A stretch of 64,000 nucleotides of DNA from Paraspadella gotoi (taxonomy: Eukaryota > Animalia > Chaetognatha). The translations under genes and the position numbers were made by a program. The notes below the pieces were generated by a model. That model saw only the letters and a program-made list of their open reading frames with translations, was not told the origin of the DNA and made no database searches. Positions 5,747 through 63,935 of the stretch are shown here, in pieces. Position 1 is the stretch's first letter, and every line of letters starts with the position of its first letter. The stretch covers positions 14,980,963 to 15,044,962 of the forward strand of contig CM119265.1 in NCBI GenBank assembly GCA_051294375.1, read 5' to 3'.

Positions 5747-6736
5747 TGTGGCGGTATATTCACACCGCCTCACGTCCACCATCCTTCAGCCAAATCCATT
5801 GGCTCAGAGGGGGAACACACCATCGCAAAGCCAACAGTGAGATGCCCCATCCCAATGGGCATCACAGGCAACCCGGCTGTTCCCATAAGTGGTGAGCCCT
5901 ACTATCGAACATGCAACCTTCTCAGGGTACGCTACAACAAACGCCTATGCCCTGCTGACTTCGGGTACGCTATGACAAATGCCTATGCCCCTGGGGTATG
6001 CTACGACAAATGCCTATGCTCCCACAACTCACGCTCTCTCTCCCACTATGGTAACTGTCTGGTCAGACACCTCTAAGGCTGCAGGAACCTGAGTGGTGTC
6101 TTGGCCGGGGATCCTGTGGCGGTATATTCACACCGCCTCACGTCCACCATCCTTCAGCCAAATCCATTGGCTCAGAGGGGAACACACCATCCAAAGCCAA
6201 CAGTGAGATGCCCCATCCCAATGGGCATCACAGGCAACCCGGCTGTTCCCATAAGTGGTGAGCCCTACTATCGAACATGCAACCTTCTCAGGGTACGCTA
6301 AAACAAACGCCTATGCCCTGCTGACTTCGGGTACGCTATGACAAACGCCTATGCCCCTGGGGTATGCTACGACAAACGCCTATGCTCCCACAACTCACGC
6401 TCTCTCTCCCACTATGGTAACAGTCTGGTCAGACACCTCTAAGGCTGCAGGAACCTGAGTGGTGTCTTGGCCCGGGGATCCTGTGGCGGTATATTCACAC
6501 CGCCTCACGTCCACAATCCTTCAGCCAAATCCATTGACTCAGAAGGGGAACACACCATCCCAGGCGTAGTGTTCCATCCACAGTCCTATTGACTTCCCTC
6601 TGCGTTGGCAAAGCTAGACCGTCCTTGGGTAACCGCGCCAGTGACTGGAGGCGTCACTGAGGGTCGGAAGCCCCCAAAGCCAACGGTGAGATGCCCCATC
6701 CCAATGGGCATGACAGGCAACCCGGCTGTTGCCATA
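5747..6736 (+). mobile_element. Tandem-array TRIM / LTR-retrozyme-like element, family A (LTR-int-LTR-int-LTR)
   Basis: LTRs at 5747-5887, 6115-6253 and 6482-6736 start TGTGGC and end (G/C)CCATA, period about 367 bp. PBS-like TGGTGAGCCCTAC follows LTR1 (5890) and LTR2 (6256). Flanks GTAC/ATAC give an imperfect 4-bp TSD. No long ORF. Confidence 0.85.
6603..6685 (+). ncRNA. Twister ribozyme motif, type P5 (in LTR3)
   Basis: CGTTGGC[P5] AAA GCTA GACCG TCCTTGGG TAA CCGC GCC AGTGAC-tggaggc-GTCACT[P3] G AGGG-TCGGAAGC-CCCC[P4/L4] AAA GCCAACG[P5]. T1 is CGG/CCG and T2 is GC/GC. Predicted cleavage U^A between 6630 and 6631. Confidence 0.75.
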
Positions 6737-35900: not shown

Positions 35901-38260
35901 TATTAATTAATCAAATAATCAGTTAATCTATAATTAATTAATCAGTAAATTAATCAATTATTCAATCAATCAATCTATTAATTAATTATTCAATCAATCA
36001 TCATCGTCGTCGTTGCTTTTGTCGTGGTCAGTGACGAAAAGACCCAAAAACAACCATTTCCGATCAAATTAATTAAATTAATTAATTACTGCTAATTATC
36101 ATGGGCAGATTCGACATTGTTTGCTTAAACTTGTTTCAACTAAATTCCAAAACCGTCTTTAACCAATTTTTAATCGGATCTTCTTATCAGCAGATTCCGA
36201 CTCTATAATTCACTTTGTCGGTACCAGCCTAAAATCTTGTCGGTAAATCATTATTATCATATCAAAACATCGAATTATGATAAAAAATGATCTTCCGTCC
36301 GTCTCCCCTTAGCATTAAACTCCAATTACTCGTGATTGGATGGAAGAATTGGAATGAAATTTTGTGTGTAGGTAGAAAAGTGTGAGATTGAGCTGGATAT
36401 AAAGTTTCGATTGAATCGTGCAAGTGGAAATGAGTTTAAATGAATGAAAAAAACAAGTCATATTTACTTGAAGTATTTTTGTTTATATTTACTCATAATT
36501 ATCATAAATTGGAAAAATAAATTGAATTGAAATTTTTTCTGTGGGTAGAAAAATATGTAATTAAGCTGGAATAAATTTTTGATGGTATCGTAGGAGTGGA
36601 AAAGAGTTTAAATTAGAAAACCATTTATTAATTTTTTTAAAAATTAATCTCTCTATCTCTGATTGATTGATTGACCTAATTATTCCAGTTGACCAAACTA
36701 TTCATGTGACCAAATTCAGCAAGTTGACCAATGACCAAATTATGCCAGTTAACTAAATTATGCCAATTGACTAAATTATGCCAGTTGAGCAAATCACGTC
36801 AATTGACCAAATTATGACAGTTGACCAAATTATACCAGTTAACCAAATTATGTAAATTGGTATTGGCGCAGCTACTCGTAATTATTGATAGATTAATTGA
36901 TTTATAGGTTTTTTCATAGATTTATTAATAAGTCTGTTATGATTTGTTATGTTACGATTTGTTACGATCTGTTAAGATCACAAATTGAAAGTTAGAAAAA
37001 ATTACCATGATTTATCATTGTATTAGCTTATTACCGCTTATTTGTCATAAGGCAGATCCGACATTGTTTGCTCAAACTTGTTTTTACCAAGGATTAATAA
37101 TCCAATTAGTACTTATGTAAAACTATTTGCTGAAAATAATTGCTCATTTGTATCTAGATTGCAAACACAAAACATGAAAAGGCCAGGCCAAACAGAAAGG
37201 GGTGAAATGTAGAATCAAGAATGTAATTTCAATATAGTAAATATTATGATTATCTTAAACTTAACTATTTTAATTCATCAGTTGGGAAACTATACCCTTC
37301 ATTGATTTGGGTTTTTAATACCGAAATTCAGTTATATAGCCTATAGACGAGCCATCACCAAATGGAGATCTTGAATTTAATAATTAATAGAATAATTAAA
37401 AGAAAATTATTGTATAGTTTCTTTCTTTCGTTGTTGTTGTAAATAAATAAATATTTACTTCTCTTTTCTAGAAAAATTATTTATATTTTGACAATTCAAC
37501 AGGCGGACACTGAATAATTCACCAGTACCAACCTAGCCAGTATTTCTTGTGAAAGGAATACTGTACGGCGCTGACAGCCTGAGAGTTGGTCTTGGAGGCG
37601 ATCATCGGCTGGGAGACGGTGCCCGTGACGGTATTGAGAAGCGAGATTTCGCCTCCTGACGTTCCGGCGGCGATGAATCCATCGTTGTGGTTGAAGGCCG
37701 TCGACGTGATTCGACATAACTTAGACGCCTGCGTAGTGTGTATGATTTCAAGGGCGAATTTACTCCGGTGAAAAACTGAAGGGCGATATTGAGAATCTAG
37801 CATGCCGAGTAGATCACTGTTCAGTGCTCACCTGAAAAGTTTTTTTCACTTTTCTTGTTTTGACGTCCCACAGCTGGACGACGCCGGTGGAGGTGCCGAC
37901 GGAGAGATCGTTGGAATAGTTGGCGAATCGAACGGAACAGGGAAGACCTTCGGCCTCCAGGTCGTGAGACACGTAACCCGCCGGCGCGTAGGTCACGTAG
38001 ACCTAAAAAAAAAAAAAGGTTTATAATTTGAATGGGCGTATTTAGTCAAAATCTTGAAAGTAACGTGCCTTATCATGATTGATTCCGGCGCTGGCGATAA
38101 TGGTAAAGTCGTGGTTCCACGATATGGATCCAACGTTGCATCCCTCGTGAGGGTTGAACGAATGAACCTCTCCAAAGTCCGGCGGCGGGTCCCAAACCGT
38201 CACCACGTCTCCCGCCGAGAGCAGTCGCGAAGACGACTGCGACGTCGAAGAAGACGACAT
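29912..38260 (-). CDS. NEDD1: NEDD1/GCP-WD gamma-tubulin ring complex targeting protein, multi-exon
   Basis: N-terminal WD40 (RLLSAGDVVTVWD; HRAPATGLTFSTLNEMFMLSAGLD; PDGVTLAVGSTRGKIIIFDLR). C-terminal helix LKDDIRRYIVQVQFEMVRQFEIQLGEIQQIL...ENEALKKEIQNLKKIY*. Confidence 0.9.
32366..32468 (+). ncRNA. Degenerate minimal hammerhead motif enclosed in an inverted repeat
   Basis: ttg CTGATGA agactc GAAAC ATGTA caa, with stem II collapsed. Flanked by ggaagttaacgaaaaa / tttttcgttaacttcc. Confidence 0.5.
33250..33369 (+). ncRNA. Minimal type I hammerhead ribozyme inside a perfect 25-bp inverted repeat (Penelope pLTR-like)
   Basis: gca CTGATGA A GGCTT gaatga AAGCC GAAAC tt GTC tgt (33276-33315). Arms 33250-33274 and 33345-33369 are exact reverse complements. 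Confidence 0.75.
35610..37085 (+). mobile_element. Two adjacent Helentron/DINE-1-like (HINE) non-autonomous elements in a NEDD1 intron
   Basis: 5' subterminal IR gtcggatctgcagatcc-tgactctataattcactttgtcg at about 35617 and 36175, a (gtct/gtcc)n microsatellite, and 3' ggcagat(c/t)cgacattgtttgct at about 36103 and 37051. The second copy holds a minisatellite of ccagttgaccaaattatg-like units at about 36670-36855. Confidence 0.55.
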
Positions 38261-39855: not shown

Positions 39856-41359
39856 TCACCACTTTATATTCAAGGACGTCGTGTTTTTCTCAACTTCATG
39901 ATATTCGGTGCGGATAATTTTTTTTACAAATTTCTCCTCTCTCTTTAACCACGAATCAAAGACGTTTTTAGCTTCGTCATTGCTTTCAGGACTCCGCGCC
40001 GTCACGGACTGGTAGACTTCTGTCACTTTATCCAACAGCGCTCGGCTTTGATTTGCTCCGTTGTCTTTAATTTGTCCGCCGCCATTGAGGCACCCGGATG
40101 GGCACGCCATCACCTCGACGAAGTGATAACCCGTTCCGGCGCCACGTTTACCCCGTTTCATCTTTTGGACGAAGTTTTGAATGTTTCTGAAACCGTAGGC
40201 GGTGGCAAACTTGAGTTTTGTCTCGCCGTCGATAACCAGTGACGTCTCCCTGAAATCTCGGTTCCGCAGCGATTCAAACCGTACCTCGTCAACGTACCGA
40301 CTGAACAAGTCGGCGGCGGCGCGTCTGTAAACGAACTCGGCAAATCCTCCGGAGCCTCCGTCAGCGTGGCCAAAATAACCTAGCTGCTTTTCACCTATTT
40401 TCAAGACGGAATCCGGCGCCTCTCGTGGAAATTCGTTCAGAGACCTCGCGCCCAACATAGCCTCCACCTCTAGCGTTGTTAACACGCAGTCAACGTCACG
40501 GTTCTCCGATTCAACGTCCAAAAAGTCAGCGCGTGACGCTTCTAACTTTTTGTCGAAACAAGGCATGACGGTTACATGGTAGATTTTGTCCCGACTCTTT
40601 TGCAACGCTTCGGCCATCCAGACCTTTACCAATGAACCCATGATCTGTTGGGGGGATTTAGTTTTGGAGATGTATGGCAGAACAAAGTCACCGTGCGTCT
40701 TTTCGGCATAGCAAATCCATCCAGGGCAAGCGGAGGCAAGCATGGGTAAATCGCCGGGAGCGTTACGTTTGTATCGTTCGATAAACTCCCGTGAGGATTC
40801 TAGGAGGCTTAGGTCTTGGCCAACGGTTTCGTCAAATACATAGTCTACGCGCAACTGTTGCTTGAAGTACCCGACGAGTCTTTCGATAGCTTCGACGGCG
40901 TTGAGATCATATCGCGCCGCAAGGGAAGCGCGAGACTGAGGAGAGACGGTGACCGCAACTGTCAGAGAAGAAGCCTCGGCGGATGCGAGTACGCTATAGA
41001 AAGCGTCTTGACTTTGCTCGGCGATCAGAACGCTTTCTGCCGAAGTGACGCATCTGCCCACCGGAATCAAGAATTAATTTATAAAAAGGAAGTTGAGCAT
41101 AAATTCTTCAGCAAGATTTAGCAAACCCGCTGCATGCTAGACAATCGGCCAGCGTGATGGACGCCTTCTCCAACACGTTGCTCTGTCCTGTGTTTGCGTC
41201 GAGCTCCCGATAATCCCCGGTGACATCGATTGTTATTTTAGCGCGGCCTTTGCTCGACTCCGACTTTTTCTCTACTTTTACAGGCTTAATGCATTCTTGA
41301 GAAGGCGCTATGAAATCGTCTAGGTCCGTAAGACGCAAAGCGCCGCTAAATTGCGCCAT
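39856..41359 (-). CDS. CIAO3: Cytosolic Fe-S assembly factor NARFL/CIAO3 (Nar1), 2 exons
   Basis: [24 protein letters not shown]; [18 protein letters not shown]; [17 protein letters not shown]; [13 protein letters not shown]; [15 protein letters not shown]; C-terminal NIKW. Confidence 0.95.
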
Positions 41360-44322: not shown

Positions 44323-46308
44323 TCAGTTTAAATAAGCTTTGTCTCGGAACTCAATTTGAAAATGAGGTCTGTGAATTTCAAAAATTAAAATATCATTGCT
44401 CCCTCTGACTAACAAAGGAGCCGGAATGTACAAAGACTTTTGGGGGCCTATTTGCCAATATCGTCCAACGTTAAAGCCATTGACAATGACAAATCCATGA
44501 TGCCAATCGAAAGGTTCCAAATAGAGAAAAGTGTCACTCGGAACGTCATTTATCTCCAAAGTGGCCCTGTAAAGCCCAGGCCCCTGATTCGTCGGAATGC
44601 TGTAATCACTCCATTTTCCTTCCGTCAAAGCTTTCTCCACGAAGGCCATCTTGAAATCGAGGCAGTAGATTATCACATCCTTGACTATTTGATCATCTAG
44701 TACGACCTGCTCTTCCAGCAGTCCCTTCCGTTGATTCTCCATTCCGGGCCCGTAATTGACGCGACCCAGATTCTCGACGAGAATGTCGAGAGTATTGTAA
44801 TCGCCCGTAGTATCGATTTGGACGCGAGCGTCCTTCATTGTAAAATCGACAGTTTCAATCTCTTTTCCGTTTATAATGACTGTCGCCCGATCGGCAACGA
44901 ATCCACGAAAACGCAGCTCGCTCACTCGCGCCACCTCCTTTCGGTAGAGGACGAACCCGAAATTCTGTCCCCGTCCGTCGCGCCTCTGCAGCGATTCCAT
45001 CTGCTTCGTCGGTTGGCCGGCAATGGAATCGTCAACGAGCGACAGCATCTGTTCCAAATCCATCATTTGTGCGACGCGCACGGAGCCGTAAGCTTTGGGA
45101 GTTATCGGCGCCGGTGGATCAACGAACTGGAAGCAGTCGCGGAAGATCCCGTTGGCCTCGGCGAATTCTTCCAACATCTTGCGCGTCAGGCTCCACTTAG
45201 GCGTAAGAGCCCCATTTTCGGTTAACGGAGCATCGTAGTCGTAAGACGTCACGTCGGGTTTGTAGTGAGGAAAAGCAGGAACGCCGTTCGCTCCCGCCAA
45301 AAAACCGAAGGACGTGCCCCCGTGAAACATGTAAAAGTTAACGCTGGCGCGATTTTCCAGAATCTCTCGAAGAGACATTTGAAAAAGGGGAAGTGGAAAT
45401 CCGCCGTGTTTCTCGCCCCAATGATCAAACCAACCGGTCCAAAACTCCATCACCATTAAAGGTCGGTCCGGCTGCAATGTCCGCAGGTTGTTCAGGTATA
45501 AAGTCACATTGGTCTGGCAATTGACAGTCATCAGGATTCCAGGAATGAACCCAGTTTCCAGCCCGGCTGAATTGTCTGAAGTGAATAGAAGAGTAGAGTC
45601 GGCAAACCCGTGCTTTTCGAAGAGACCCATCAGATGGAGCAAATATCGAGTGTCCGACCCAAACGACCCGTATTCGTTCTCTATCTGCGCCGCGATAACT
45701 GGTCCTCCTCTCAGGTACTGCAGATCCTTTAATTTCGGAAGTAGAACGTTGAAGTAATCGTCAACGGCGTCGAGGTAAGGACGGTACATGGTCCTCACTC
45801 TCATGCGCGGATCTTTCAACAGCCAGGAAGGCAGCCCACCGAAGTCCCATTCGGAGCAAATGTACGGACCGGGACGGATAATGATCCAGAGGCCGAGTTT
45901 TTCGGCCAAACGGACGAAGGAAACTAAATCCAGAATACCGTGGAAATTAAAGTCACCCTTCGATTCCTCGTGGAGGTTCCAAGGAACGTAAGTCTCTACT
46001 GTGTTCAGTCCTGCAGCCTTGAGTTTTGTCAGCCGATCCAGCCAATACTCGGGGACGACACGAAAGTAATGGAGAGCGCCGGCGGCGACGAAGAACGGTT
46101 TCTTGTTCAAAGTAAAGTCGTTGCCTTGGGCCTTGAGGCCCTCGACGCGAGTCTCGCGGAACGGCATGGCGACGACGGGCGGCGGTGGGGTAGGGGGAGT
46201 CGAGAGCCAGAAACGAAAGTGGATGAAAATCGCGAAAGCAACGATGGTGAGAAGGATGACGCCGAGACGAACGCGTGGTGCGCCAAGTCGAAACAATTTT
46301 AAAGTCAT
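44323..46308 (-). CDS. GH35 beta-galactosidase (GLB1-like 2/3 type), intronless, N-terminal signal anchor
   Basis: GALHYFRVVPEYWLDRLTKLKAAGLNTVETYVPWNLHE; RPGPYICSEWDFGGLPSWL; QIENEYG; MEFWTGWFDHWG; NFYMFHGGTSFG; TSYDYDAPL; GRYWQIGPQKSLYIP. Confidence 0.93.
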   Translation of the reverse strand: MTLKLFRLGAPRVRLGVILLTIVAFAIFIHFRFWLSTPPTPPPPVVAMPFRETRVEGLKAQGNDFTLNKKPFFVAAGALHYFRVVPEYWLDRLTKLKAAGLNTVETYVPWNLHEESKGDFNFHGILDLVSFVRLAEKLGLWIIIRPGPYICSEWDFGGLPSWLLKDPRMRVRTMYRPYLDAVDDYFNVLLPKLKDLQYLRGGPVIAAQIENEYGSFGSDTRYLLHLMGLFEKHGFADSTLLFTSDNSAGLETGFIPGILMTVNCQTNVTLYLNNLRTLQPDRPLMVMEFWTGWFDHWGEKHGGFPLPLFQMSLREILENRASVNFYMFHGGTSFGFLAGANGVPAFPHYKPDVTSYDYDAPLTENGALTPKWSLTRKMLEEFAEANGIFRDCFQFVDPPAPITPKAYGSVRVAQMMDLEQMLSLVDDSIAGQPTKQMESLQRRDGRGQNFGFVLYRKEVARVSELRFRGFVADRATVIINGKEIETVDFTMKDARVQIDTTGDYNTLDILVENLGRVNYGPGMENQRKGLLEEQVVLDDQIVKDVIIYCLDFKMAFVEKALTEGKWSDYSIPTNQGPGLYRATLEINDVPSDTFLYLEPFDWHHGFVIVNGFNVGRYWQIGPQKSLYIPAPLLVRGSNDILIFEIHRPHFQIEFRDKAYLN

Positions 46309-47306
46309 TATCGCGGCGACGGCAGTGGGGAATATGAAGCGCGAGTGAAGAGCGACGGACGGCAATGTAAAGTCATTCTTACCGAGTTTAATTAAGAGTT
46401 TTTATTCTAATAAGAAAAAAATAGGCGAAGATAAGAATTGAAAAGGTGAGAGAAAAATTTTGGATTTAGACAAGTTAGCCACTCTTTTGTTCGGTCGAAG
46501 TTTGTATCTTTTAATCCCGAGCATAGTTTGATAGATGGCGTTTCAGTCAGCAATCTTAGTCAGAAAGACATCGGGTTTTTAAATTACGCCTATTTTTTAA
46601 AAAATTGAGTTTAAAAGCGGGCTCGATCATCGGGACATATCGTCGAATGATAAGACCTATAATTGAAAAGAAGAACTTATATACAAATTTTATTTCTATT
46701 TACTTTTAAATAATTAACTGTGACTTTTAATAACAAATCAACAAGATAGATTGATCGTAAAATTTAGGTCGGATGTAATGTAACAAATGTACAGATTAAC
46801 AGGAATTTTAAAGAATAACGTTAAAGCGAGAAGTACTAAACAAAGATATGGATAAACTGGATGGCTAAAAAAAATTATCGCAAACAAGAATAGTCATACC
46901 CCCCACCTGTTTGGAACGTAATCCACAAAAAATGCATAACAATCGTGCCTGGAGAAGCGTGACCAGATTTTTTTTAATTGAAGCTTTACAACGAAAAAAT
47001 CACGATAGGAACGTAACGTCGGAAATATGAAGAAAAAAAACGAAAAAAATATTAAGAGAAAATTGTTATTTCCTCCTCGCGAAGTACGTTCAATTTTAAT
47101 TAAAGGCCAAAGCTCTTTATAATGATAATAAAACGTGCGCAATTCGGCCTTCGAGACCAAAACGAAAAAAAAAAGACCGAGAGTTTTGACATCGTCAGTT
47201 AGAAAAAAAAGCGACCGTCTCGAGTTACACACGGCGGCGGCAGGCGCTGGGATTATTCTCTTTCTTCGCTCCCTCGCTGACGCTGGCAAACTTCCCCTCG
47301 CTTCGG

Positions 47307-47781: not shown

Positions 47782-50700
47782 TCAAAATGCGGCCTCGTGA
47801 AAGGATCGGACGGCTAGGGAGGCGGCGTCGGGGGGTGTGGCCGAAGCTGCTCGGCGATCGTCGCCGCTCCCGCCGGCTGCTGCCGCCGCCAAGTGCAGGT
47901 TTCGTAAATCGGTCAATGAGGAAGAGCGGAAGGGAGGTTTAACGCCACGCTTGAAATCCTGACGAGGCAAAAAAAAAAAAAGGTTCGGGGGTGTTGGTTG
48001 GTTGGCTCGCTGGCTGACTCTTTCTCTCTCTGCGACTCGCCTCGTAAGAGTCAATGTTGGAGTTGGCGTCGTTCTTTAAATCATTAAGGGCACGTCGAGA
48101 CGTTAAGGGGGCGATACGCCCCGGGCTCCGAGACAGCAATCGGGAATTCGAAGCTCCCTGAAATCCAAGGGAAAATTGTTTGTTACAATGTTATAAATCT
48201 ATTTGTTTTTCTCTATTTTCAAGCCTAAATTCTTATCTAAAGTTGTCCTTGTAATTTACAGGTACTAATAATATTGGTTATAACATTATAACATTCTGTT
48301 CGAAGACTCGCTAACAATAAAATAACACTAAAAAAATTATCGAATATAACACATATTAAAGTTAAGTCCAAATTGAATGCTTGAATTCACGATAAAGAAA
48401 AACTCATAAAAATTCGCCAGACATGGCATAAAACAGCGGCATCTTCAACCCACGCCGAATCGTGCGCCAAGACGAAAAAGTTGCCATTCCGGTTTTCCCT
48501 TTGGCTCGACACGGAGAACGAACTCGACTTTTCGGACAAAAAGGGACGCGAACATTAAACTGGCGTGGGACCTGACCTTTGATTTAGCCGGGCACGACAT
48601 CGGCACCGGCGGCCGGTAAGGCGAAAGCGCGAGTCGGATGCTGGAATGCGTCTGTTGAGTTGGGGTCATCGTCGACGCCTCCGCACCGTTGAGCTTTTGA
48701 GGAAAAGTTATACTAATATAATTAGAAAGTTCAAAATATTAACTTGATATTTTTTTCAGAAACTAAATAAATCTCTTAATTTATTATCCATTATTATATT
48801 ATATTGGCTGTAAAAAGATATAATATTTCTCAAGATACCAAAAAAAGGGGTTAACTATAAACCAAGTACAGATCCTAAAATTACAATACAGAGCCTAAAC
48901 TTAAAAGAAATGAATATTTGTTTAGATAATGGAATAAATGATTATAGACACGTGCAAAAAAAAAAAGAAAAAAAAAGCGCCACTTTAGAACTTTAAATTC
49001 CAGACACTCTATAAAAATATTTTTAGAGAAAAATAAAGTTTTTAAAAAAAGGAATTTATGTGTATAAATTTTATCAAAATCGGCCAAGTGGTTTAGGAGA
49101 TATGATTTTTTAAATCGTATAATGATTTCTTTTAGAATAAAAAGAATTTTATTCGAAAGTTTTAAAATCATTGACCTATCATTCGTATTATATTTTATTA
49201 ATCTTGATATTTTTATTTAGGGATCTCGGTCAATCTAGTTGTCCAGCTATCCCTCCTGATATCCAGGAAATTTTTTTTTTCATTTTTAATCTACTATAAA
49301 AAAAAAATATTAGTCTTAAATGAATCAAATTTCTTTATATTTAATTTGTTTTGGAGTACCTTATTCTGAAAAACTTACTCATCCCAAACGGATAGCCCAA
49401 TTTCTCTCAAATTTAAATCAAACTCAATCTTTTAATAAACTAATTTTAAAAAAAATTGAAGTATACAGGGCGATTTTTAAAAAGCTGAAATAAAGTGGCG
49501 CTTTTTTTTCACAAGACTTCAATCCTAGTTTATTTTTCCTTCCAAATACAAAATTTTGAAAATCGATTTACGGCCAAAAACGTACATAAGGTTTCCAATA
49601 AATTTTATTTAAAAGTTAATTTTCAACTGAGACAAAAAAATCCAACTGTGATCCAAATCCGATGATACGAAAGAAAAATTAATTATACGTAAACTGTACA
49701 CCAATAAGAAAAAATTATAATCCCATTTGAAAGAAAAAATGACATTTTTAAAAAGTTCAAAACATTGCTTAAAAACGCTTAAAAACATTCTAAAAATACT
49801 ATCCAAACCACTAACAAAAAAATTATTCTTCGTGGAGCAAAAAATCTTGTCCAAAAGCAGCTATAATTTTTTACTATTACAAATGTTGAATGCTGATAAC
49901 CACTTGTTATAAATTACCACAAGAAAAAAAATCAGATTTTACTCAGGTTAGCTAAGGGATAGCTAAGGAATATCCCCCTTCTCAAGCTATCTTTCGATAA
50001 AAATTTAGGTAAACTTTTATGCAGCCGATGCTGTGATGCACTGGTCACTCTATCGAGCTTAAACTACCAATTTTTCAAATTGTATTGCCATAAGCCACTC
50101 CTGTTTCTTCAGTTTATATGCGAATTATAGGCAGTGAATACCCATCGTCGTCTTGCCAATAATCAATTTGTCACTGAAAAGCAGTCTTAAGGCTGAGTAT
50201 CATTCTCTCAGGCCACAAAAGGTTTATGGACAAAAGGTTTATGGACAGTAGTGGCAAAAAAGCACCAATATTTTCTGTACCAGGGTCTTCAAAACTTAAA
50301 CAAAATTGTTTATTGCAATCGATTTTTAACAAATACGATTCGCCGACAATTGAGCATTTTAACATCTTCGTACGAAATTATAATGGATTAAAATAAAATT
50401 TATACATAAAAAACGTCAAAAGGTTATATTATGGCAACAGCCAGGTTGCCTGTGATGCCCATTGGGATGGGGCATCTCACTGTTGGCTTTGGGGCTTCCG
50501 ACCCTCAGTAGCCTCCAGTCACTGGCGCGGTTACCCTAGGACGGTCTCGCTTTGCCCAGCAGAGGGAAGTCGTTAGGACTGTGGATGAACACTACGCCTG
50601 GGATGGTGTGTTCCCCCCTTTGAGCCAATGGATTTGGCTGAAGGATGGTGGGCGGGAGGCCGGTGTGAATATACCGCCACAGGATCCCCGGGCTAAGACA

Positions 50701-53700
50701 TCACTCGGTTCCTCAAGCCTGAGAGGTGTCCGACAAGACTGTTACCATAGTGGGAGAGAAAGCGTGAGTTGTGAGGGCATAGGCGTTTGTCGTAGCATAT
50801 CCCAGGGGCATAGGCGTTTTCGTAGCGTACCCTGAGAAGGTTGCGTGTTTGTAGTAGGGGTCACCACTTATGGCAACAGCCGGGTTGCCTGTGATGCCCA
50901 CCAGGATGGGGCATTTCACTGTTGGCCCTGGGGCATCCGACCCCCAGTGACGTCCCCAGCCACCGGCGCGGTCACCCCAGGACGGTCTCACTTTGCCAAC
51001 GCAGAGGGAAGTCATGTAGGATTGTGGATGGAACACTACGCCTGGGATGGTGTGTTCCTCCCTCTGAGCCAATGGATTTGGCTGAAGGATAGTGGGCGTG
51101 AGGCGGTGTGAATATACCGCCACAATATATGATTTTAAAAAATCTTTGTGTATAAACTTTCGTTACGTTACTATCAAAGAAAATTAATAAAAAAATCCGA
51201 AAAAAAAGGAATGATTGATGTAATAGTAATTGATTATTGATGCGATGTTAACCAAATATTGATGCGATGTTAACCAAATATTGATGCGATAACCAAATAT
51301 TGATGCGATGATAACCAATAATTCATACGATACGGCCCTTATCCCGTCTGGCGAGATAAAAATGAGTGAATCTATCTCATCTCAGTAAAGTACGGCAGTG
51401 GTTTCTTTCGTATCATCGGAACTTTGGGAAAGACGGAAAAAAAATTCTTGTAACTCTAAAAGGGGTTGCCCAAATAAATTTTGCTATGATGATCCAAAGA
51501 CTTATCCAGCTTTCCCTTCATTATTTTTTTTGAGGGGGACTACGACTCTCCGGGTGCATCAACAGTAAGAATAGTGAACATTTTTTCTTACATTATCTTA
51601 GCTTTTAGGTCAAACCTATTTGCTTTCCCTTACCAAAAAGTATGCTTAAACTCTCGGATAAGTTTCAAATCTCATTTCATGGTGTCCAGTTGCCCCATTG
51701 CAGTTCCTCATGCCATTACGGAGTTCATTAATATCAATACTTAACCTAAACTATATATTTAATTTTAATTCCCTAATGACTATACACGTGCTAAGTACTT
51801 TTTGTAATAATTAAAAAAGTCAATAGAAAAACAACACCCCATACTAGAAAATAATCCACGAAATGAATGCAATTTATAGGGAAAAAAATTCTATCTACCT
51901 TGGGAAACTTTCTACCCAAGGTCGGAGTCAGACACCCCGGCCTTGATTCTTCCTGAAACGTGGAAAAAGAACGTATCGGTGTAAACAGTTTTAGAAATTT
52001 TTTTAAAACGAAATTTCGTTTAAAAGTACTTACTCTTTGTCTTTTGGTGGGAGTCTTGGCGTTGCTAGGAGTGTTGGTATTAGAGGGGAGAGCGCCACAG
52101 AATCGACGCTTTGTCGGCGTCTTAGGGCGACTGCCAAATGTCATCTCGACTTCCGTTTCACGCTGTTTCTTTCGCAAACGAGACTCACGTTCCTGACCAA
52201 ACCACCAATTAACATTTAACAATACTAACATTCTATTACTAAAGACAAAAAAGCAAGTTGTCGAAGGTTCTTACTCATAATTGAAAACTTACCATTTGCT
52301 TTTCGACCTCGTGATTCTCCCTCTGTCTTGTGACGTATTCTTTATAACCAATCCCGCAGACTTGAAACTGCCGCCCATTTTCCGACTCCCAGGCATGGAT
52401 CTGTATCTCCAATTCTTTTTCCACCTTGGGCAACTTAACGGCCAGCTTGTTTCGTTCCTTCTCTTCCTGCAGTAAGAAAAATGTTTCGATAAAATGGCCT
52501 ATTGTGGCAGCAAGACTTAAAAGCTGCCTCACTGCTGTCCTTCCTCAGCTCGTCTCAATGGCCGAGCAGGCTAATCTACTCATTCATCCGTCCGGCGTCC
52601 GCGTTCAATCTGGGTATCCCGGTTCTGGCTTAAGGTTGACGGTGGCCGGTATAAACATGCCAGTGACAGGGAGGCGTCACTGAGGGTGCGCAGACCCTAC
52701 GGGCCAGTTGGTGGATCCGCCGCCGCCCCGGTTATCAAGGCTATCCTTCCGCGTTGCCATACTATCCTTTAAATTAAGGACTAAAAGTCTGAATACTAAG
52801 TTTAACCTGCAACAGTCCCCCTCCTCGATTGACGAAACGGTTAGGGTCATTTGCTCTTTTCTCAAACTGCAGAAACTGGGTCCACATCATTTCCCAACAT
52901 TCTACCGCCTAAAAATGAACAAAAATGTAACAAACAGTTAATTTTTTCTCAAGGGAAATCATAACATTTTTTATTTTATACACCTGAAACAATCTCTGGT
53001 GCTCCTCGTAGTAGATTTTAAGAAAATCTAATTCCTTTTCGTGAACATCCAACAACTGTTCGTTATAATCTTCATCTTGAAATCCCAGAAAAGCTTCCTT
53101 CTGATCCTCGCTGTTAAAAAAAGGCGATGAGAAAAAAATAAAAAAATCGAATAACAGACACAGTTGCATAAGTAAACGTTATGTAACTAACCTATAGTAA
53201 CACTTGTTCCAGTATTCTTTAATTTGATTACGTAATTTTTCAATAAGTTTTCCCAAATTTGCCCTGCGAAGTTCCTTCATTTGCTGAACTTTTTCCTTAA
53301 AATTGTCGATAACCTGCAATTGGATAAGATTCGTCAATTGCATCATATTTTAAATTATAATACCGAGTAAACGTCTTCGTCATACATATATAATATATAC
53401 GTTAAAGTATAGCACTGTAGTACTTAACTACTTAAGTTTTCCCCGGTTTTTTTTCAAAGAAACTAAGCATTTCACGATTATATGCGATAATTTTTATTTT
53501 TAGGTAAATTGGTAAAGTTCTCCGCCATCATATGACACTCCCCACTCCCGAGACCTGCTGACGGCACCCTTGGTTGTCTTCGATAAACTGCCGTTTAATG
53601 TCGTCTGTAACATCCAGTTGGTCCCAGAGTACGATCAGTCTTCCCTTTAATTCGGCTATGGCCGATCGCCGTTGAGACTCAATCTCTTCCAAATCCTAAC

Positions 53701-54529
53701 AAAGCGATTTCCAAGAACACAATTTAATGTCCGGAACTGATATAGAATAAAAAAATTAACAAAATTTTCTTCGATTTAACTCACCTGACAATATTTTCTC
53801 AGCCCCTCCATATTCCTGGAGTTAAGATCGAAGGATTCTTCGTCCTCGGCAAGAATGTCTCCCTGAAACGTATTGTCGGGAGTCACTCCAACGGCGTCGA
53901 GCAATTTGACTATGTTCCTCTTGAGAATCTTGAATTCTTCTTTCCGCTCTTTTAAAGTTCTTTTCATCAAATCAATGTGAGCCTCGAGTTCTTTGAGCAC
54001 GTCGCGAGAAGGTACGGTATTGGGACGAATGGCATATGGTATCTCCCCCAACTGGTCGGAGAGCGCTTCGTCCACGTTGACGAGAGCCTCCACTTCCTTC
54101 ATACGCTCCGCTTTTTCTTCGCGTAACTTTTGAAGTTCTTTGGGAAGAATGCTGTTTAATTGGAAAGGGGTCGCGTGTTCGGGGGGCTACCGAAAGGGGG
54201 AACTTGTTATTACAGGAGGGAGACTGACCAAAAAAAAAAAAATAATTTACTTCGTAAGGTGCGAGATTGAGTTCGTCGCACAAGGCGGCGATCTTCTGGG
54301 CCAACTGCTCGATCCTTTTCTCGATCTTTGACTTGAGTTCCTCCTCTTCGTTAACGAGGCCCTTGAGAAATTCCTCGACATGGAGAACGACTCCGTTGGT
54401 TCTTTCCATCATGGACTTGGCGTCGAGGCCAAGCGTGTGCCAAATCATGCACATGTGAGTCACGTCCTTGGAGACGCCGGCAACGAGCGCCTCGCGCAAA
54501 CGATCCTCAGATTGACGAATTTGCGACAT
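47782..54529 (-). CDS. PRC1: Protein regulator of cytokinesis 1 (PRC1/MAP65/Ase1/Feo), multi-exon
   Basis: Coiled-coil N-terminus; ANDPNRFVNRGGGLLQEEKERNKLAVKLPKVEKEL...WESENGRQF; EMTFGSRPKTPTKRR. Tentative 3' exons include SNIDSYE|DF and end ...HEAAF* at 47782. Confidence 0.88.
50482..50560 (-). ncRNA. Twister ribozyme motif, type P5 (3' LTR)
   Basis: GGGC AAA GCGA GACCG TCCTAGGG TAA CCGC GCC AGTGACtggaggcTACT G AGGG TCGGAAGC CCC AAA GCCAAC. Core is intact, P3 and P5 are partly eroded. Confidence 0.7.
50921..51000 (-). ncRNA. Mutated twister motif (5' LTR)
   Basis: GTTGGC AAA GTGA GACCG TCCTGGGG TGA CCGC GCC GGTGGC...GTCACT G GGGG TCGGATGC CCC...GCCAAC. UAA is changed to UGA and L4 AAGC to AUGC, so it is probably inactive. 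Confidence 0.6.
51235..51320 (+). repeat. Short tandem repeat (about 22-bp unit tattgatgcgatgttaaccaaa, about 4 copies)
   Basis: Direct reading. It is followed by gtctggcgagataaaaa, which is also seen at about 18887. Confidence 0.7.
52503..52761 (+). mobile_element. Solo LTR of a divergent family-A subfamily with degenerate twister motif, in a PRC1 intron
   Basis: TGTGGC...TTGCCATA ends and a perfect CTAT TSD. Twister-like 52625-52707: CTGGC..GACGG TGGCCGGTA TAA ACAT GCC AGTGAC..GTCACT G AGGG TGCGCAGA CCCT..GCCAG. Confidence 0.75.
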
Positions 54530-55048
54530 TTCGTCGACAGGCGCGTAAATAACGTTCTTAGTTATGATACACGGGATTTTAATTAGCACGGTTTCGAAGA
54601 GGATTACATCTTCTGGTAAACGAATTCTGGGGGATAAGAGGATACAGTAAAAAGCGAATAGATCAACAAATATAAATAATGTCGACTTAAAAAACTATAC
54701 TTAATGTAATCAACAAATTGAAATTTAATTTCCTTAAATTGACAGAATATAATGTAAGAAATGTTGATTGTTTGTATGTGTGTGAATAATCAACGATAAG
54801 GCAACGAGTTCAATAGTGAATACGTTGGTCTACGTAAACAGAATAATAATTTAGGACAGTCCAATGATAAAAAATTAAAAAACAGAAAAAAATGCAAATA
54901 GGGTAAATATTCTTGGCAGGTCAATTTCGGATATCACAAAACGCTTTTTGAAATTACTGGAAATTACACGAAAAAGATTTTTTCAAAATTATATTGAATA
55001 TATTGTATAAAATAATGTGTTAAACTAGAGGCACATTAATGAATTTAT

Positions 55049-55664
55049 TGTAGCGGTAGTATTTCATACTCCGTTACTCGTCCGAGAATCAGCAGCGCCT
55101 TAGGACTCGCGTTCGCGCCCTGCTGATTCACACAAGAAAGCGCGACGGGGCGTCTCACCCACCGGTAGTGACGGACTACAGCCCGATCCAAAGTTCGGGA
55201 ACTTGTGTGCAACGGACGGTGAACTGCTCACATCATCATCTTCCACATTGGTGAGCCCAAACGAACACGCTGGGACGTTAATACACCTCTGCCCGGACAT
55301 GTTAACACACCTCTACCCTCGACCAGGAGACGGGAGCAGGAATAGGCAGTCCCCTAGAGTGCTCAGGTACAACGTGTGCATCAGAGCCATCACACTTGCG
55401 CGGGTTTGTGATGTCTAGGGGGGGGGATGTGTAGTGGTAGTATTTCAAACCCCATTACTCGTCCGAGAATCAGCAGCACCTATAGCGCCGGAGATAGCAC
55501 GAGCTCCTCCAAACCCAAAGGACTCCGGTTCGCGCCCTGCTGATTCACACAAAAAAGCGCGACAGGGCGTCTAATCCACCTGTAGTGACGGACAACAGCC
55601 GGATCCAAAGTTCGGAAACTTGTGTGCAACGGACAGTGAACTGCTCGCGGCATCGTCTTCCACA
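55049..55664 (+). mobile_element. Complete TRIM / LTR-retrozyme-like element, family B
   Basis: LTRs 55049-55247 and 55430-55664 (TGTAG...TTCCACA), PBS TGGTGAGCCCA at 55249, PPT AGGGGGGGGGA at 55417-55427 and a perfect TTAT TSD. Twister-like motifs at 55129-55209 and 55546-55626. Confidence 0.9.
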
Positions 55665-55713
55665 TTATCCATGTAAAAAGTAATCAGCCCTGCTTCCAAT
55701 ATTCGAAACGAAA

Positions 55714-58700
55714 TCATTTATACCTCCTAACTCCATCAACAGTCATTGGACGAGTAAAAATTGTAGGTTTGGGATTTATCTCGACGTTACAGTTTTCGGA
55801 TTCGGCCATTTGGCATAAAATAGTTTCGGTTTTAGGACCGTCACCTTTCCCCATCATTGCCACTGTCCTTAGGTCCTCTTTATCTTCTCTTTTCATTGAC
55901 AGAAAGCTTTTCATTAAGGCCATCTCTTGACGGTGGTTGAGCAGGCGTTCTAGGTCAGCCGCCATTTCAATTTGGATGCCTTGAAGACGATCCCGTTCGG
56001 TTGACAGTCGTTCGATGTCTTGCACAAGGACGGCCGACTGTTCTTTGAGATTTTTAATCTGGACAAATACAAATCTTGGCTAGTTTTTCCGCAAAGTTTT
56101 GACAAAAATTATAGTTTTCATAAATTTCACCTCTTGATCTTTTATTTTCACTGTCTGGATAATGTAACCGTAGGGTTGTTGCGAATCTTCAATGGCTTGG
56201 TTCGCCTTTTCTAACTCTTCTGTAAGCGCCTTCCTTGTTTCGTCTGCAGCTTCAAGAGCCCTTCTTTGAGAGACGTTGGCGCGCTCTAACGCTAAAACGC
56301 GGCGAGCCAGGTGGACGCTCTGCATAGTGCGACGTCGCGCAGAGGAAGGAACGTTGGCACCATAACCATAGGCGAATAAAATCTGAGCAGTGGATTCACA
56401 ATGTTTAAAACTAATAAGTAAAAAACCAGCCTTATTATTTAATTTCATCTTAAGCACCTTATCGGCTTGGGCGTCGTCCTCCAATTCCGCACATTGCATC
56501 ACAACCTGGTCCATTTCCTTCTCTAAGTGTTCGTATACCTCGAGTTTGTCTTTTAAGGTCTTGCATTTCTGTGTCAGCTCTGTGTTGTGCCTCTCCAAAG
56601 ACGTTCGCTCATCAAAGTATTCCTTTGTCGACTTCTCCAGCTTCGAGGCTAAGCTTACGGTCTCTCGTCGCAAATCGTTTGAGATTTGTTGGGCCTGCTC
56701 GTAAAGCACTTGGAGGTTTTCAAATTCAAAGGTCTTCAAACGAAGTTCGTTGGCGGCGGCGGCGCTTTTGGCGTCTGCGTCGATCCGCACCATTTTTGAT
56801 TCGTCTTGGAGAGAAGCGACCTTTTCCGCCAGACGTTTAGCGGAGGCCACCGCTTCCTCCTTTTCGGCTAAAGCCAACTCCTTAGTCTCCCGCAGACCGT
56901 GATTTTCACGGTCATAAAGTTCTCGAATGGAGGCGCGCACGCGGTCGACTTCGTGAGAGGTCCGAAGTTTCAGCGAATCTAATTCATTCTGTAAAGGATC
57001 CTTCTTTGTAGCATTGAACGCGAATTACTAACTCTAAGAGGGCCCACCTTTAATTTTTCCTCATACTGGTTCTTCGATTCTTCCCGTGACAGCACGTATT
57101 TTTCGTACATTTGCTCGCGACTCTCCTTAGCTTTCTCGAGATCTTCGTTGGCTTTGCGCAATTTTTCCTCGGAAAAACTACATCGATTGTCCAAATCCCT
57201 GAGTGAAGAGGGAATAAGTAGAAATTTATGAAGAAATTCGTTGAACGAAAAAAAAACCTTTTTCGCTTCGCCCATTTTAATACAGGGACTTCCATCAGGA
57301 GTGATAAGAAAAGACTTTATTAAACTCGTAATTCTCTCAGTTCATATTATTTTTATAAATCTTATTAGTTAGAAAACGTTTATTTTGACCTAAATTTTTT
57401 TTTCATTTACTAACAGTAGAACCACAGTGGATCACAAGTGCGGAGTTACTTTTCTTCATTTTTTCTTTCAAACTTTAACAGTTAATTTTTAACGCAGATT
57501 GTAAAGTTATTTAATATAAAAATAAAAATTTTTGATGATAGAAAATTATAAAAATTAATAAAAACTTGGTGATTAGTTTTTATTAAAAAGAAAAGTAAAA
57601 ACTAACATATTTTCTATTGGTTCAGAGGGGGAACGCACCATCCCAGGCGTTGCGTTCCATCCACACTTCCCTCTGGGTTGGCAAAGCGAGAGCGTCCTGG
57701 GGTAACCGCGCCAGTGACATAGGTGTCACTGAGGGTCGGTAGCCGCCAAAGACAACTGTGAGATGCCCCATCCCAATGGGCATCACAGGTAACCCGGCTG
57801 TTGCCATACTTTCATAATTTTTTTTCAAAGTGAAATTTTTATTTTTAATTGATTTTAAAGGGAAAAAGTTATAATGATTAAGTATTATTTATAATAAACA
57901 AATCTGTTTTATTTCTGGTTTGTGATACATTTACTACAGTATCATATTAATAAAAAACTGAACCATGACAAAAATTGTTTTAATAGGAAGTGAAGGATTA
58001 ATAGTAAAGTCCTCTTACAAAGTAAACTGCCACAGTACGAAAAAAACATGCAGTGAAATTATAAAGTCACCTGATCTGCCTTTCGAAATATTCCTTGTCT
58101 TGGGCCATGAGGGCGTTCTCTTGCCGCAGATTCCCGTTCTCGCGCGCCAAAGACTCCACCTCTTTGGAAAGTTTCTTCGTTTCGACTTCCAAAAATTCCC
58201 ATTTTTCGTGGACCACCTGGTGACGCCTTTTGAGATCGTCGAGTTCCTCTTTGACGACGTCGTAGTTTTCTTTTTTGAAGTCCCTTTGTTTTGTGGAGAG
58301 TTCAGTCTCCTTCAACTTGGACTCGACCTCCTTCAGTGACTTGGTCAGACGGTTCTTCTCGTCATCTCGTCGGAGTAGGGTTTCTCTAAGGCCGTAAAGT
58401 TCTCTGCCCAGGGAGTCACGTGCCTCCATCGCCGACGCGCGAGCGAGTTTTAACGACTCCACCTCATCTCGCAGTGGCTTCACTACCTCGTAGACCCTCA
58501 TCCCGACGACGTCCTTGATCGGGAGGGAGGATTCGTCGCGTCGTCGCAGCTCAGAATATCGCTTGTCAGACACGAAAAGATCCCGGGTGAGGTTTCTCTC
58601 TAGATTGCCGGCCTTGAGCCGCAGTTCTTCGTTGGAGGCTTCCAAAGTCTCCTGCGCCTCGAGGACAGCCTTAATCTCCGTCCGCGTTTTGTCTCGGGAG

Positions 58701-59520
58701 CGCCGGTGCTCCTCTGCTTGTACAGCTAGCTGCGTCTCCAGCTTGGCGCGAAGTACTTGGTTTTCGTGCTCCGTGTCGACGACTTTCTCCTCTAGTTCGT
58801 CAACTTTCGACATGTAATCCGCTTTCACGTTGTCAAGCTCCAGAGATTTCTATAAAGTTTAAATTTTTTAATCTATTAATTTTTTTTGGAAAAAGGTAAT
58901 AATATTGACCGACCCCCCCCCCGCCCCCCCAAAAAACGTAAAAATCACCTGCGATAGTTCTATTTTAACAAGCTGCAAGTCATGTTCCAACTGTTTTTTT
59001 TCTAACAGCTCCTTGGTTACATTCCGGTCTAACAGACCTACGGAGCCGGCCGTTCTCCTGGATTGCGGACGCCCTCGCTGCGCTGTAGCGTGACGGAGTA
59101 AAAGTCGTCGGCGAATGATCTTAAAATATTTTGGTTTTATTACACTGTATTAATGCCGTTGAAAATATAGTTACGATACAACCTTGTTTTGATTTTCGTC
59201 GGTATCCCCATCATCGTCCTCCCTAGCGTCCAAGAAGGTTGTCGTGGTCGTCAAATCGGTAGGAAGACTAGTTCCGAGAGAGAGACTGGCGTCTTCATCC
59301 AAAGTTACAAAAACTCGATCAGGATCGTTGCCGCTTTTGTCCGCATCGACGCCTGCAGAATATTTAGGAGAAAAAACATGATACATTGAAGGAAAAGAAT
59401 TTTAAAAACTTTAAATTAAAATTATAATTAATAAAATGTAAACTTTTTTATTTTACCTGAGCCACCTTCAGAAGAGACTCGTTCTCCATCTGGTGATGAA
59501 GCTAGCGCGCTACTGTCCAT
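55714..59520 (-). CDS. PIBF1: Progesterone-induced blocking factor 1 / CEP90 centriolar coiled-coil protein, multi-exon
   Basis: VTKELLEKKQLEHDLQLVKIELSQK; KESREQMYEKYVLSRE; YEHLEKEMDQVVMQCAE; AYGYGANVPSSARRRTMQSVHLARRVLALE; QQPYGYII; MAADLERLLNHRQEMALMK. Confidence 0.92.
57616..57808 (+). mobile_element. 5'-truncated solo LTR of family A with twister motif (57677-57756), in a PIBF1 intron
   Basis: Aligns to 6482-6736 and ends CTGTTGCCATA. GTTGGC AAA GCGA GAGCG TCCTGGGG TAA CCGC GCC AGTGACA-tagg-TGTCACT G AGGG TCGGTAGC CGCC AAA GACAAC. Confidence 0.8.
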
Positions 59521-61724: not shown

Positions 61725-63935
61725 TTACATAATGGCGCAGCTTTTTGCCTCCTCCGCCGGTGCGGCCGCAGCGGGCTGTAAAAAGAAAAAAAAAAATTTT
61801 TCCTTTCGAATTTTTTAAAAGGGGAGATTAAATAAATAATTTATGTGATAAAAACTAACAACTCACCTCATCGGGTGCCGTAATGATAGATTCATTTTGC
61901 GTCACAATTTCGGAAGTGTATTGCACACGCTTCCTCTTCGTTCCACGCGATGGCGTTGGAGTTCGCGATCCAGATTGGGAGACGTTGATTCGCAAGCGCT
62001 CCTCTTCGCCTTCCAGCAACTTCCGGTAGGCGGCTAAAAGAAACAATGATCGTTACTACCCGTTGGGGCAACCCAAGAAAACCATGATCATTTAACGCCC
62101 ACGCTCCCTCTTCCCACCGATTTCCATGTCGAGGGCGAGCTTTATGTCCATTAACTCGTGATATTCCATCAGTTGATCGGCCATTTGCTGACGCAAACTT
62201 TTTATTTCATCGTCCTTGGCGGTCATAGAGTTACGATACTCTTTCTCGCGCGACGCCAGGTCTGACTCCAAATCGGCGATGCGTCCCTCGTACATGCGAC
62301 ATTTTGACTAAATAAACAAACAAACATGCATGAGCATAAGAATTAGTACTCGGTTTTTCATATTAAGACCTGTTTTTACCGAGAGTGTGTTAATATGAGA
62401 GGTGAGTTCTCCGATCTTTAATCTCCCGGTAGAAATTTCTTCCTGGAAGCCCTTGTCTTCGGATTGACTCCGATTTAATGCGCCTTGAAGCCCATCGATC
62501 TTGGCCTCGTACATCGCTTCCAGCTCGGCCTTGAGCAGGGCTGCCTGCTCGTCGTAATGACGACGTAGATCTTGGAGAGACTCTTGAAGGCGGTTGTCAT
62601 ATTCTGTCGCCAAAGTTTGATCTAAAAATCGTGGAAAAACGTTTATTTAGATCTGGTAGGGCATTCGGCGAACCACAACCATAACTACCGATTTCCGTGA
62701 TTTCAAGTTCTTTCTTCTTTCGGGTTTCGTTCAACTCGGAGTCGAACAAAGATTTCTTGAAGACTAATTCCTCCTTTAGAGACTGCAGACGATTCTCCAG
62801 ATCAACTCGGACCAACGTCTCTTCTTCTAACTGACGTTTGGCGAGGTTCCTTTGTGATTCCAGTTCCGGAAGCTCGGCCTGAAGGCTTGCCAGTTCCTCA
62901 ACGGCGCGTTGCTTGTCTTTCAGGGCGATGGAAAGGTTCGCCGAGAGATCCTACAAAAAATGTGAAGTCAGAGTAATAGTAATAGTCTTTTCATACAATT
63001 GAAACATTCTTTGAAATATTATAATACTTCATTGATAGGGAAGCCAGTACTCTGGGAGTGAATAAACAAGACAGAGAGTCTTGCTTGAAAGCTGCGATGT
63101 CATTATCTTGTAAGAATGATGGAGGCCTTAAACCACCAAAGCCTGCCCAAAGTCAGGGGCAAGATAGCTTATTTATTAGGTGAATGGATAATTTTTATTT
63201 TGGTTGTACCAGTTTCATATGATAAAATCAAGTTTAAAATTAAATTGTCAATGCAATAAATACAATACCGAGTTAAATTTTTTGTTCAATTCCGATTTTA
63301 GAAAATAAACCCTAAACCTGTAAATAGTACTAAGGCAAAATGGAAAAAGAATGCCTTGCCATTCTGATCCGAGTAATTGAAAAGTAACATTACAAACAAT
63401 ATAGACTAACTTCGACGTTTATTCTCACCGAAATCTTTTTTTCCGCGTCGGCGAGGGATTTGTGAAGGGCCGAGAGCTCCGAGTCCCGTTTGGTTAACTT
63501 GGCTGCAAGATCATCCGCTTCCGCCTTCCACTTTCCGACTTCGATTTGTAGATGTGCCTTTTCTTTGGCAGTCTCATCAAGAAGCTTACGGGCATCAGCA
63601 AGTTCCGCCTCGTAGAGACCCTGTTTAAAAATTAAAATTATTGCATCGACATAAAATTTTATAAAACAAGATGCATCACAACGCAGAGTTTGGGTAAATG
63701 GGTTAATAGGTAAAAAAATAACCTTTTTATAATAAAATATTTATATATTGTTGAATCATTAGAAGCAAAAATATTAAATGTCAAATATCAAATGACACGA
63801 GGCAAAAACCTTCAGATTTGAAATTTCTCTAGTCGTAGTGTCTTCTGTGCTCTGTATTTGTACGGTGAGTCTCATGTTCTCCGATTCAAGACTCCGAACC
63901 CTATCGATGTAGTTGGCGAAGCGGTCGTTTAGAAC
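61725..63935 (-). CDS. Nuclear lamin (B-type, CaaX CAIM), 5'-partial, lacking the Ig-fold tail domain
   Basis: [19 protein letters not shown]; [15 protein letters not shown]; [26 protein letters not shown]; NLS KRKR. Terminal exon 61725-61775 reads [16 protein letters not shown]. Confidence 0.9.
62980..63218. repeat. Second copy (inverted) of the dispersed repeat at 10072-10323
   Basis: Reverse-complement similarity over about 240 bp. Confidence 0.75.

Follow-up and report, generated by a model that had tools for sequence, protein, structure and literature searches.

The locus raises the question of whether a short LTR element in an animal, the chaetognath Paraspadella gotoi, carries a self-cleaving ribozyme of the twister type in its LTRs and, if so, what the element would use it for. 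The element, referred to here as family B, was found in a stretch of 64 kb (the window), where an earlier note had described it as the second of two TRIM families with the same ribozyme architecture.

Anatomy and dispersal of family B

The family B element occupies positions 55049-55664 (616 bp) and consists of two direct LTRs, a primer binding site (PBS), a polypurine tract (PPT) and a TTAT target site duplication (TSD). Sequence comparison placed the 5′ LTR at 55049-55247 (199 nt) and the 3′ LTR at 55430-55664 (235 nt), both on the forward strand and both with TGT..ACA ends. The internal region (55248-55429) was non-coding in an ORF scan and included the PBS, TGGTGAGCCC, at 55249-55258 and the polypurine tract at 55417-55427. 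The longest ATG ORF in the whole element measured 39 aa on the forward strand and 66 aa on the reverse strand. TTAT was read from the sequence on both sides, at 55045-55048 and 55665-55668, and the chance of any 4-mer match at this site is about 0.006. The TRIM anatomy given in the earlier note, with TG..CA LTRs, a PBS, a G-rich PPT and a TTAT TSD, was located in full. Family B is a TRIM, being shorter than 1 kb and non-coding, with two LTRs, a PBS, a PPT, a short TSD and dispersed copies, and we hold this with near certainty.

The insertion is not recent: an alignment of the two LTRs over 199 positions showed 21 differences, besides a 36-nt indel (K2P 0.114). The 36-nt segment was present in the 3′ LTR, missing from the 5′ LTR and deeply covered by other copies. 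A hairpin at the start of each LTR (55049-55077 and 55430-55458) was preserved through a double change between the two, and family A also opens with a hairpin.

The window holds a single family B copy. Other copies were read from the contigs of six sequencing runs out of 11 listed, taken as set 1 (X4, X5, X7 and X9) and set 2 (X4, X5, X6 and X8). Unlike flanks beyond 55664 were found in three of the four set 2 runs (36, 12 and 24 contigs in X4, X5 and X6), and contigs continuing from the LTR end into a PBS were found in X4, X5 and X8 of the same set (11, 5 and 4). In X4, LTR depth reached about 224,000, compared with about 110 in the flanks (about 2,000x) and 900-6,600 inside the element, although depth is not equivalent to copy number. 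The depth and the many distinct flanks in other contigs support the abundance of the family that had been proposed. X7 was guessed to be an RNA run and, because it covered the flanks evenly, it was not used as expression evidence. Among 15 of the 33 joints in the set 1 runs, none skipped the element as an empty-site allele would. The whole locus was present, and identical, in X9 record 25. A metagenome scan with a 19-mer gave six loci, none of them alike past 24 nt, and all were considered chance matches.

Twister-like cores in the window copy

The Rfam Twister-P5 consensus and the S. mansoni table in PMC8501958 served as templates for parsing the cores. Each family B LTR could be parsed as P5, linker, P2′, GA, T1, P1, UAA, P2, T2, P3, P4 with L4, and P5′. 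L4 is an 8-nt loop of the form U-N-N-N-A-A-G-Y, closed by P4, and T2 uses A-U where G-C is usual.

In the 5′ LTR the core lies at 55129-55209 on the forward strand. P5 is formed by 55129-55136 with 55202-55209, the GA is at 55144-55145, the cut-site triplet at 55155-55157, T2 at 55161-55162 with 55193-55194, P3 at 55163-55181, P4 at 55182-55186 with 55195-55199, and L4 at 55187-55194. Pairing was complete in P5 (8/8), P4 (5/5, with a predicted pairing probability of 0.99) and T2 (2/2), and incomplete in P3 (6/7), T1 (2/3) and P2 (1/3), and TCA replaces TAA at the cut site. The 3′ LTR core (55546-55626, forward strand) has its GA at 55561-55562, a TAA at 55572-55574 and L4 at 55604-55611, with the cut predicted after 55572. 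It keeps TAA and has mismatches in T1 (1/3 paired), P2 (1/3), P4 (3/5), P3 (6/7) and P5 (7/8). The three-pair T1 is thus incomplete in both LTRs. The 5′ LTR core is predicted to be inactive, as it has lost the general-acid A, and the 3′ LTR core is predicted to be weak or inactive. The window locus is probably a decayed, inactive copy of family B. A hammerhead reading (CTGA..GAAA near 55123-55139) lacked stem III and a cut triplet and was ruled out by eye, and a candidate L4 chosen by eye was dropped because it sits within P3.

Rfam gave no twister match to family B or A, whether the window or the families separately were searched, and no hammerhead match in the window or in either family. The Rfam Twister-P5 consensus has no P3. 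With a loose descriptor the 5′ LTR scored 22 and the 3′ LTR 20, values reached by 18 and 44 of 60 shuffled windows, respectively; at least 21 was reached in 11 of 3000 shuffles of the element. A strict descriptor matched twice in the window, in family A at 6664 and in a third repeat, family C, at 10141, and neither family B LTR of the window copy passed. Applied to shuffled windows, it gave one match in 11 of 300 and two in none, and no element shuffle passed (0/5000). With a loose score within chance and the strict descriptor failed, the window copy alone is unconvincing.

The fold in other family B copies

The shares reported for other copies are per position and depth-weighted on contigs, and do not represent whole molecules. 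The set 2 runs gave 38 variant rows. Eight core positions differed there from the window 3′ LTR, each of the four runs showing the difference in 70-99% of depth. Six of these close all six non-P2 mismatches of the 3′ LTR (one in P5, two in T1, one in P3 and two in P4). The remaining two fall in P2 and in a linker, and no pair is opened by any of the eight. Of the six repairing letters, the window 5′ LTR already has five, so that the T1 position is the only independent test. The T1 defect common to both window LTRs, noted before these data were obtained, was closed at 55607 in 97, 94, 98 and 78% of depth in the set 2 runs, and at the corresponding 5′ LTR position, 55190, in 93-99% of depth in three of the four set 1 runs. 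At 55156, among the set 1 rows listed, UAA accounted for 95% of depth in X4, 97% in X5 and 78% in X7; it accounted for 0% in X9, whose contigs there were almost entirely the window locus. UAA, and GA with the general base, were found at the family level and in the 3′ LTR, UAA being missing from the window 5′ LTR.

P1 and P2 are weak throughout. P2 has 3 nt on one strand and forms one or two pairs, at best two Watson-Crick pairs, where a twister would be expected to have 4 bp. Its better, two-pair form at 55560 accounted for 44, 0, 38 and 2% in the set 1 runs, and in set 2 it was seen as loose ends in all four runs with no table row. P1 consists of a single pair, or of two that close a 2-nt loop. 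Most minor variants in set 2 were C>T or G>A changes, the pattern that post-insertion decay would produce. The common form of the family has a CpG at the T1 position changed in both window LTRs, and this change may have arisen twice.

By our reading, the commonest letters of family B would satisfy every clause of the strict descriptor, and their loose score comes to about 25.5-26.5, a figure obtained by arithmetic on per-position shares and not from one molecule. The family-level data, unlike the window copy alone, beat window-wide chance. The P5-type layout described earlier was recovered element by element in both LTRs and in the commonest letters of the family, although both window LTRs are defective. 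A family lacking UAA and the L4 motif had been named as evidence against the ribozyme, and the other copies were found to keep both.

In the available text of PMC11662667, which reports a screen covering about 2,600 natural twisters, defects in P1 and P2, and most of those in P4, were tolerated, molecules with pseudoknot mismatches cut less, and loss of the general-acid A abolished cleavage in five of five cases. A scan of the rice twister agrees with this screen; swapped pseudoknot pairs were often functional there, and the G at the T2 position where family B has A-U was intolerant to single change (PMC5113685). P3 and a linker of the G-U-A-A-A type occur in S. mansoni twisters, as given in Table 1 of PMC8501958. 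As twisters withstand damage to P1 and P2 but not to the pseudoknots or the general acid, the core of the family is credible as a twister, with the window 5′ LTR predicted to be dead and the 3′ LTR predicted to be weak. Judged on its predicted fold, family B probably carries a working twister.

A few LTR copies kept both ends and had the core (55547-55636) replaced by 17-37 nt, mostly A-rich (four joints in set 2, in X4 and X6). The A-rich replacement in one such core-less contig contains AATAAA. A-rich loose ends at the core position were also seen in X4, X5, X8 and X9, and the core behaves like a removable cassette.

Families A and C

Family A is represented in the window by a three-LTR tandem array (5747-6736, forward strand), two LTRs of which are internally deleted across the core, by a full element flanked by ATAT on both sides (50430-51124, reverse strand) and by a partial solo LTR (57613-57808, forward strand). 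The best BLAST match between families A and B was 10 nt long (E 0.63), which bears out the claim that the two are distinct in sequence. Family A LTRs end in ATA and not CA. The family A cores are cleaner predicted P5-plus-P3 twisters than those of family B, and two of them scored 25.5 and 25.0 with the loose descriptor, above all 60 shuffled windows (maximum 24.5). The family A core at 6604-6684 is predicted to cut, as is the family C core near 10141.

Family C is an AT-rich repeat with two copies, 88% identical, at 10068-10330 (reverse strand) and 62985-63219 (forward strand). It contains a predicted P5-type twister without P3, which passes the strict descriptor and has a weak Rfam match (25.8 bits, under the cut-off of 37.6). 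It shares with family B the A-C/G-U T2 and the 3-nt P2 strand. Its P1 is a loop-less palindrome, so that dimerisation may be needed. No PBS-like motif was seen in family C.

Across the three families the letters of T1, T2 and P4 differ and the pairs hold. The same is true of P3 between families A and B, and P5 is paired in both. T2 was paired in all eight natural cores and T1 fully paired in five of them. The pairs of the A and B cores were read by anchor, because a MAFFT alignment of these cores was out of structural register.

Primer site and partner element

The family B PBS was identical over 10 nt to two of the three family A junctions and differed by one base from the third, confirming the near-identity reported before. 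In the available text of PMC2582038, CsRn1-clade Ty3/Gypsy elements have the PBS TGGTGA(G/C)CCCG(T/A), complementary to tRNA-Trp, as well as 4-bp TSDs and LTRs with TGT..ACA or TGT..ATA ends. Families A and B match the first 10 nt of this PBS, both G/C variants included, and the match stops there. They also share with the clade the 4-bp TSD and the LTR ends, those of family A being of the ATA type. Unlike family B, which is non-coding, the CsRn1-clade elements described in that source are autonomous and coding. Neither a tRNA nor an element of this clade was found in the 64-kb window, and a literature search for the PBS string returned, among the matches listed, only unrelated papers. The common primer tRNA proposed for the two families therefore stands as far as the shared PBS is concerned, the tRNA itself having been matched only to the published CsRn1-clade PBS. 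The further proposal of an abundant, diversified superfamily holds for abundance, given the depth and flanks, but the word superfamily overreaches for two or three families in one genome.

Upstream fold and transcription start

An upstream segment capable of pairing with the core had been put forward as a possible inhibitory fold. The candidate inhibitor, at 55112-55122 (forward strand), is complementary to 55146-55152, on the T1/P1 side of the core. Three of its bases are locked in a 10-bp hairpin between 55086-55095 and 55120-55129 (forward strand; pair probabilities 0.69-1.0), which sequesters the strand, and the probability of the inhibitory helix was 0.00 in either whole LTR. The complementarity is real, but the stronger hairpin would block the inhibitory fold unless the transcript starts inside the LTR.

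In a 5′-truncation scan of both family B LTRs, the maximum probability of upstream pairing by a core base was 0.00 for starts at positions 1-37. From LTR position 43 it reached 0.91 in the 3′ LTR and 0.47 in the 5′ LTR, and 0.92-0.94 in the latter at starts 49-56. The scan covered the two decayed window copies, folded without pseudoknots; other copies in set 1 differ at four positions upstream of the core. No start-dependent switch was found in the scan of three family A LTRs. A TATA-like hexamer at 55060 and a TCAG at 55089-55092 (55060-55092, forward strand) suggest a candidate Pol II start near 55091. The two motifs, at LTR positions 9-12 and 40-41, occurred in five of five LTRs of families A and B. 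They are weak motifs that may represent a Pol II TATA/initiator core promoter. No poly(A) hexamer was present in the two family B or the three family A LTRs.

Comparison with known elements

Family B is most readily compared with plant LTR retrozymes. In the available parts of Cervera 2016 (PMC4918200) and PMC7761336, these are non-coding, have a self-cleaving motif per LTR (predicted in family B), a PBS, a PPT and a 4-bp TSD, an inferred Gypsy-type partner and tandem multimers, all as in family B. They differ in carrying a type III hammerhead and a tRNA-Met PBS, whereas family B has a twister-type fold, a tRNA-Trp-type PBS and an animal host. According to the same sources their LTRs are about 350 bp and their units 600-1000 nt, and they form circles, whereas family B has LTRs of about 235 bp and a unit of about 420 nt and is known from sequence alone. 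Having neither a hammerhead nor a tRNA-Met PBS, family B is not a member of the plant LTR retrozyme family. It would be an animal counterpart of these ribozyme-carrying plant elements, if its fold cleaves.

Animal TRIMs, including Helenus and Ajax, are described in the available text of PMC10886601 as shorter than 1 kb, with two LTRs, a PBS, a PPT and a Gypsy partner. Helenus has a 4-bp TSD as in family B, and animal TRIMs, again like family B, have an RNA module in the LTR and LTRs outnumbering internal parts. The Helenus and Ajax module is a tRNA- or 5S-derived Pol III promoter, whereas that of family B is a ribozyme-like fold; no tRNA or box-B motif was found in family B. The twister variants at the 5′ end of S. 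mansoni Perere-3, as reported in parts of PMC8501958, resemble family B in having P3 and a weak P1 and in their link to retrotransposons. They are P1-type and terminal in a non-LTR element that is autonomous, whereas the family B cores are P5-type and lie inside both LTRs of a non-autonomous one. Metazoan non-LTR retrozymes (PMC7229834; bioRxiv 10.64898/2026.07.22.740005) are also small animal repeats with a self-cleaving motif per unit. As far as these accounts go, and unlike family B, they have type I hammerheads, lack an LTR, PBS and PPT, and are linked to Penelope-like elements.

In the available literature taken together (PMC7761336, PMC4918200, PMC7229834, PMC6765202, PMC9695139, PMC8501958, PMC12542633, PMC3286476, PMC10886601, bioRxiv 10.1101/2022.07.19.500677 and 10.64898/2026.07.22.740005), LTR retrozymes are mainly from plants and have type III hammerheads, animal retrozymes lack an LTR, PBS and PPT, and twisters are reported from non-LTR Perere-3/RTE elements and from viroid-like circles. 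A twister in an LTR element was not encountered in our literature search, which reached few subscription papers and not Repbase. Unannotated LTR loci of this kind could be among the twisters catalogued in PMC8501958 and PMC11662667. As the P5-plus-P3 form is missed by the Rfam models, such elements may also be overlooked in other genomes. If animal LTR elements indeed carry twisters, and do so in two families unrelated in sequence but with a common primer site, the retrozyme design would have arisen again with another ribozyme, host and primer. Family B would give twister ribozymes a concrete role that is cheaply testable.

Proposed mechanism and alternatives

We suggest that family B, with its predicted P5-type twister in the LTR, works like a plant LTR retrozyme, although we place the whole chain of events slightly below an even chance. 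The steps are drawn by analogy from what the available parts of PMC4918200, PMC7761336 and PMC9695139 describe for plant retrozymes. Transcripts containing both whole cores, from read-through or tandem arrays, would be cut at U^A in each LTR to release a unit of roughly 420 nt (the two sites are 417 nt apart here) with 5′-OH and cyclic-phosphate ends, which a host ligase would close into a circle. At the PBS, a tRNA-Trp would serve as the primer for reverse transcription. Reverse transcriptase and integrase would come from a Gypsy partner, likely a CsRn1-clade element, and integration would leave 4-bp duplications. The three-LTR tandem array of family A counts in favour of such a route. The circle would hold the whole anti-inhibitor hairpin, so that an intact core could re-cut it. 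Retrozyme circles are strongly paired in the literature available to us, unlike the unit-length circle of the window copy, which folded no better than shuffles (z -1.04, 60 shuffles).

Alternatively, transcription from the element's own promoter may start near LTR position 43, in which case the 5′ twister would be off and only the 3′ twister would cut. We consider this unlikely, if still worth weighing, and the same applies to its second part, in which the ribozyme would make the 3′ end instead of polyadenylation and leave a linear RNA whose normal R repeat, of about 65-100 nt, would serve in strand transfer. A start near 43 would halve the anti-inhibitor strand and so hold the 5′ twister off. 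The predicted pairing follows this pattern (0.00 for starts 1-37, up to 0.91 and 0.47 from position 43), as do the TATA-like hexamer and TCAG in all five A and B LTRs and the lack of a poly(A) hexamer from the same five. The few family B contigs whose core is replaced by 17-37 mostly A-rich nt, which in one of them include AATAAA, also point this way, but AATAAA arises easily in A-rich DNA. Moreover, the start motifs are weak, the three family A LTRs show no such switch, and the scan was made on two decayed copies without pseudoknots, other copies differing at four upstream positions. Since starts over a wide stretch are all inhibited, the coincidence with position 43 is modest. In a plant retrozyme, LTR-driven RNA is cut at the 5′ ribozyme, according to the available text of PMC9695139. 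In a broader form of the idea, which we regard as doubtful, a twister cassette would have taken the place of the poly(A) step in animal LTR mini-retrotransposons, and family B would gate it by transcription start (5′ off, 3′ on). If this is true, one sequence would yield two products: a linear template bearing R when transcribed from its own promoter, and a circle when read through.

The retrozyme-like route must also be set against two explanations in which cleavage plays no part. Family B may be an ordinary TRIM that captured a twister once, lost its activity or never needed it, and moves by a capped linear route; we think this improbable. In its favour, both window LTRs have the T1 mismatch and a weak P2, which may reflect transposition of a defective template; some LTR variants lack the core; and even the commonest form has a weak P1 and P2. 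Against it, both pseudoknots, UAA, GA and L4 are retained in the dominant letters of family B and, with other letters, in families A and C. The minor variants, mostly C>T or G>A, look like post-insertion decay, and the shared T1 change, at a CpG, may have occurred twice. That the resemblance to a twister is due to chance, or to a non-catalytic multi-branch structure such as a packaging or dimerisation signal, seems very unlikely to us. The missing Rfam match and a loose score of at least 22 in 18 of 60 shuffled windows would agree with it. It is opposed by three unrelated repeats in one window that parse as P5-type twisters with compensating letters, by two family A copies (25.5 and 25.0) exceeding all 60 shuffles, and by the strict rule, which gave two matches in the window and at most one in any of 300 shuffles.

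Genomic surroundings

The family B element lies between two genes within 53776-58849 (reverse strand). One, downstream on that strand, is a MAP65/ASE1 (PRC1-like) gene. The other is a coiled-coil gene without a Pfam match, whose last exon, as it appears, is about 50 bp from the element, and the element may sit antisense in the 3′ UTR of this gene. Single-frame NARFL-like and beta-galactosidase-like genes were found at 39856-41073 and 44323-46401 (reverse strand). Their nearest named proteins were 46-54% identical and unnamed ones 59-76%; these low identities point to a poorly sampled animal lineage. Further AT-rich interspersed repeats and an 18-nt tandem array were found at 14387-15168, 19490-19728 and 35772-37090.
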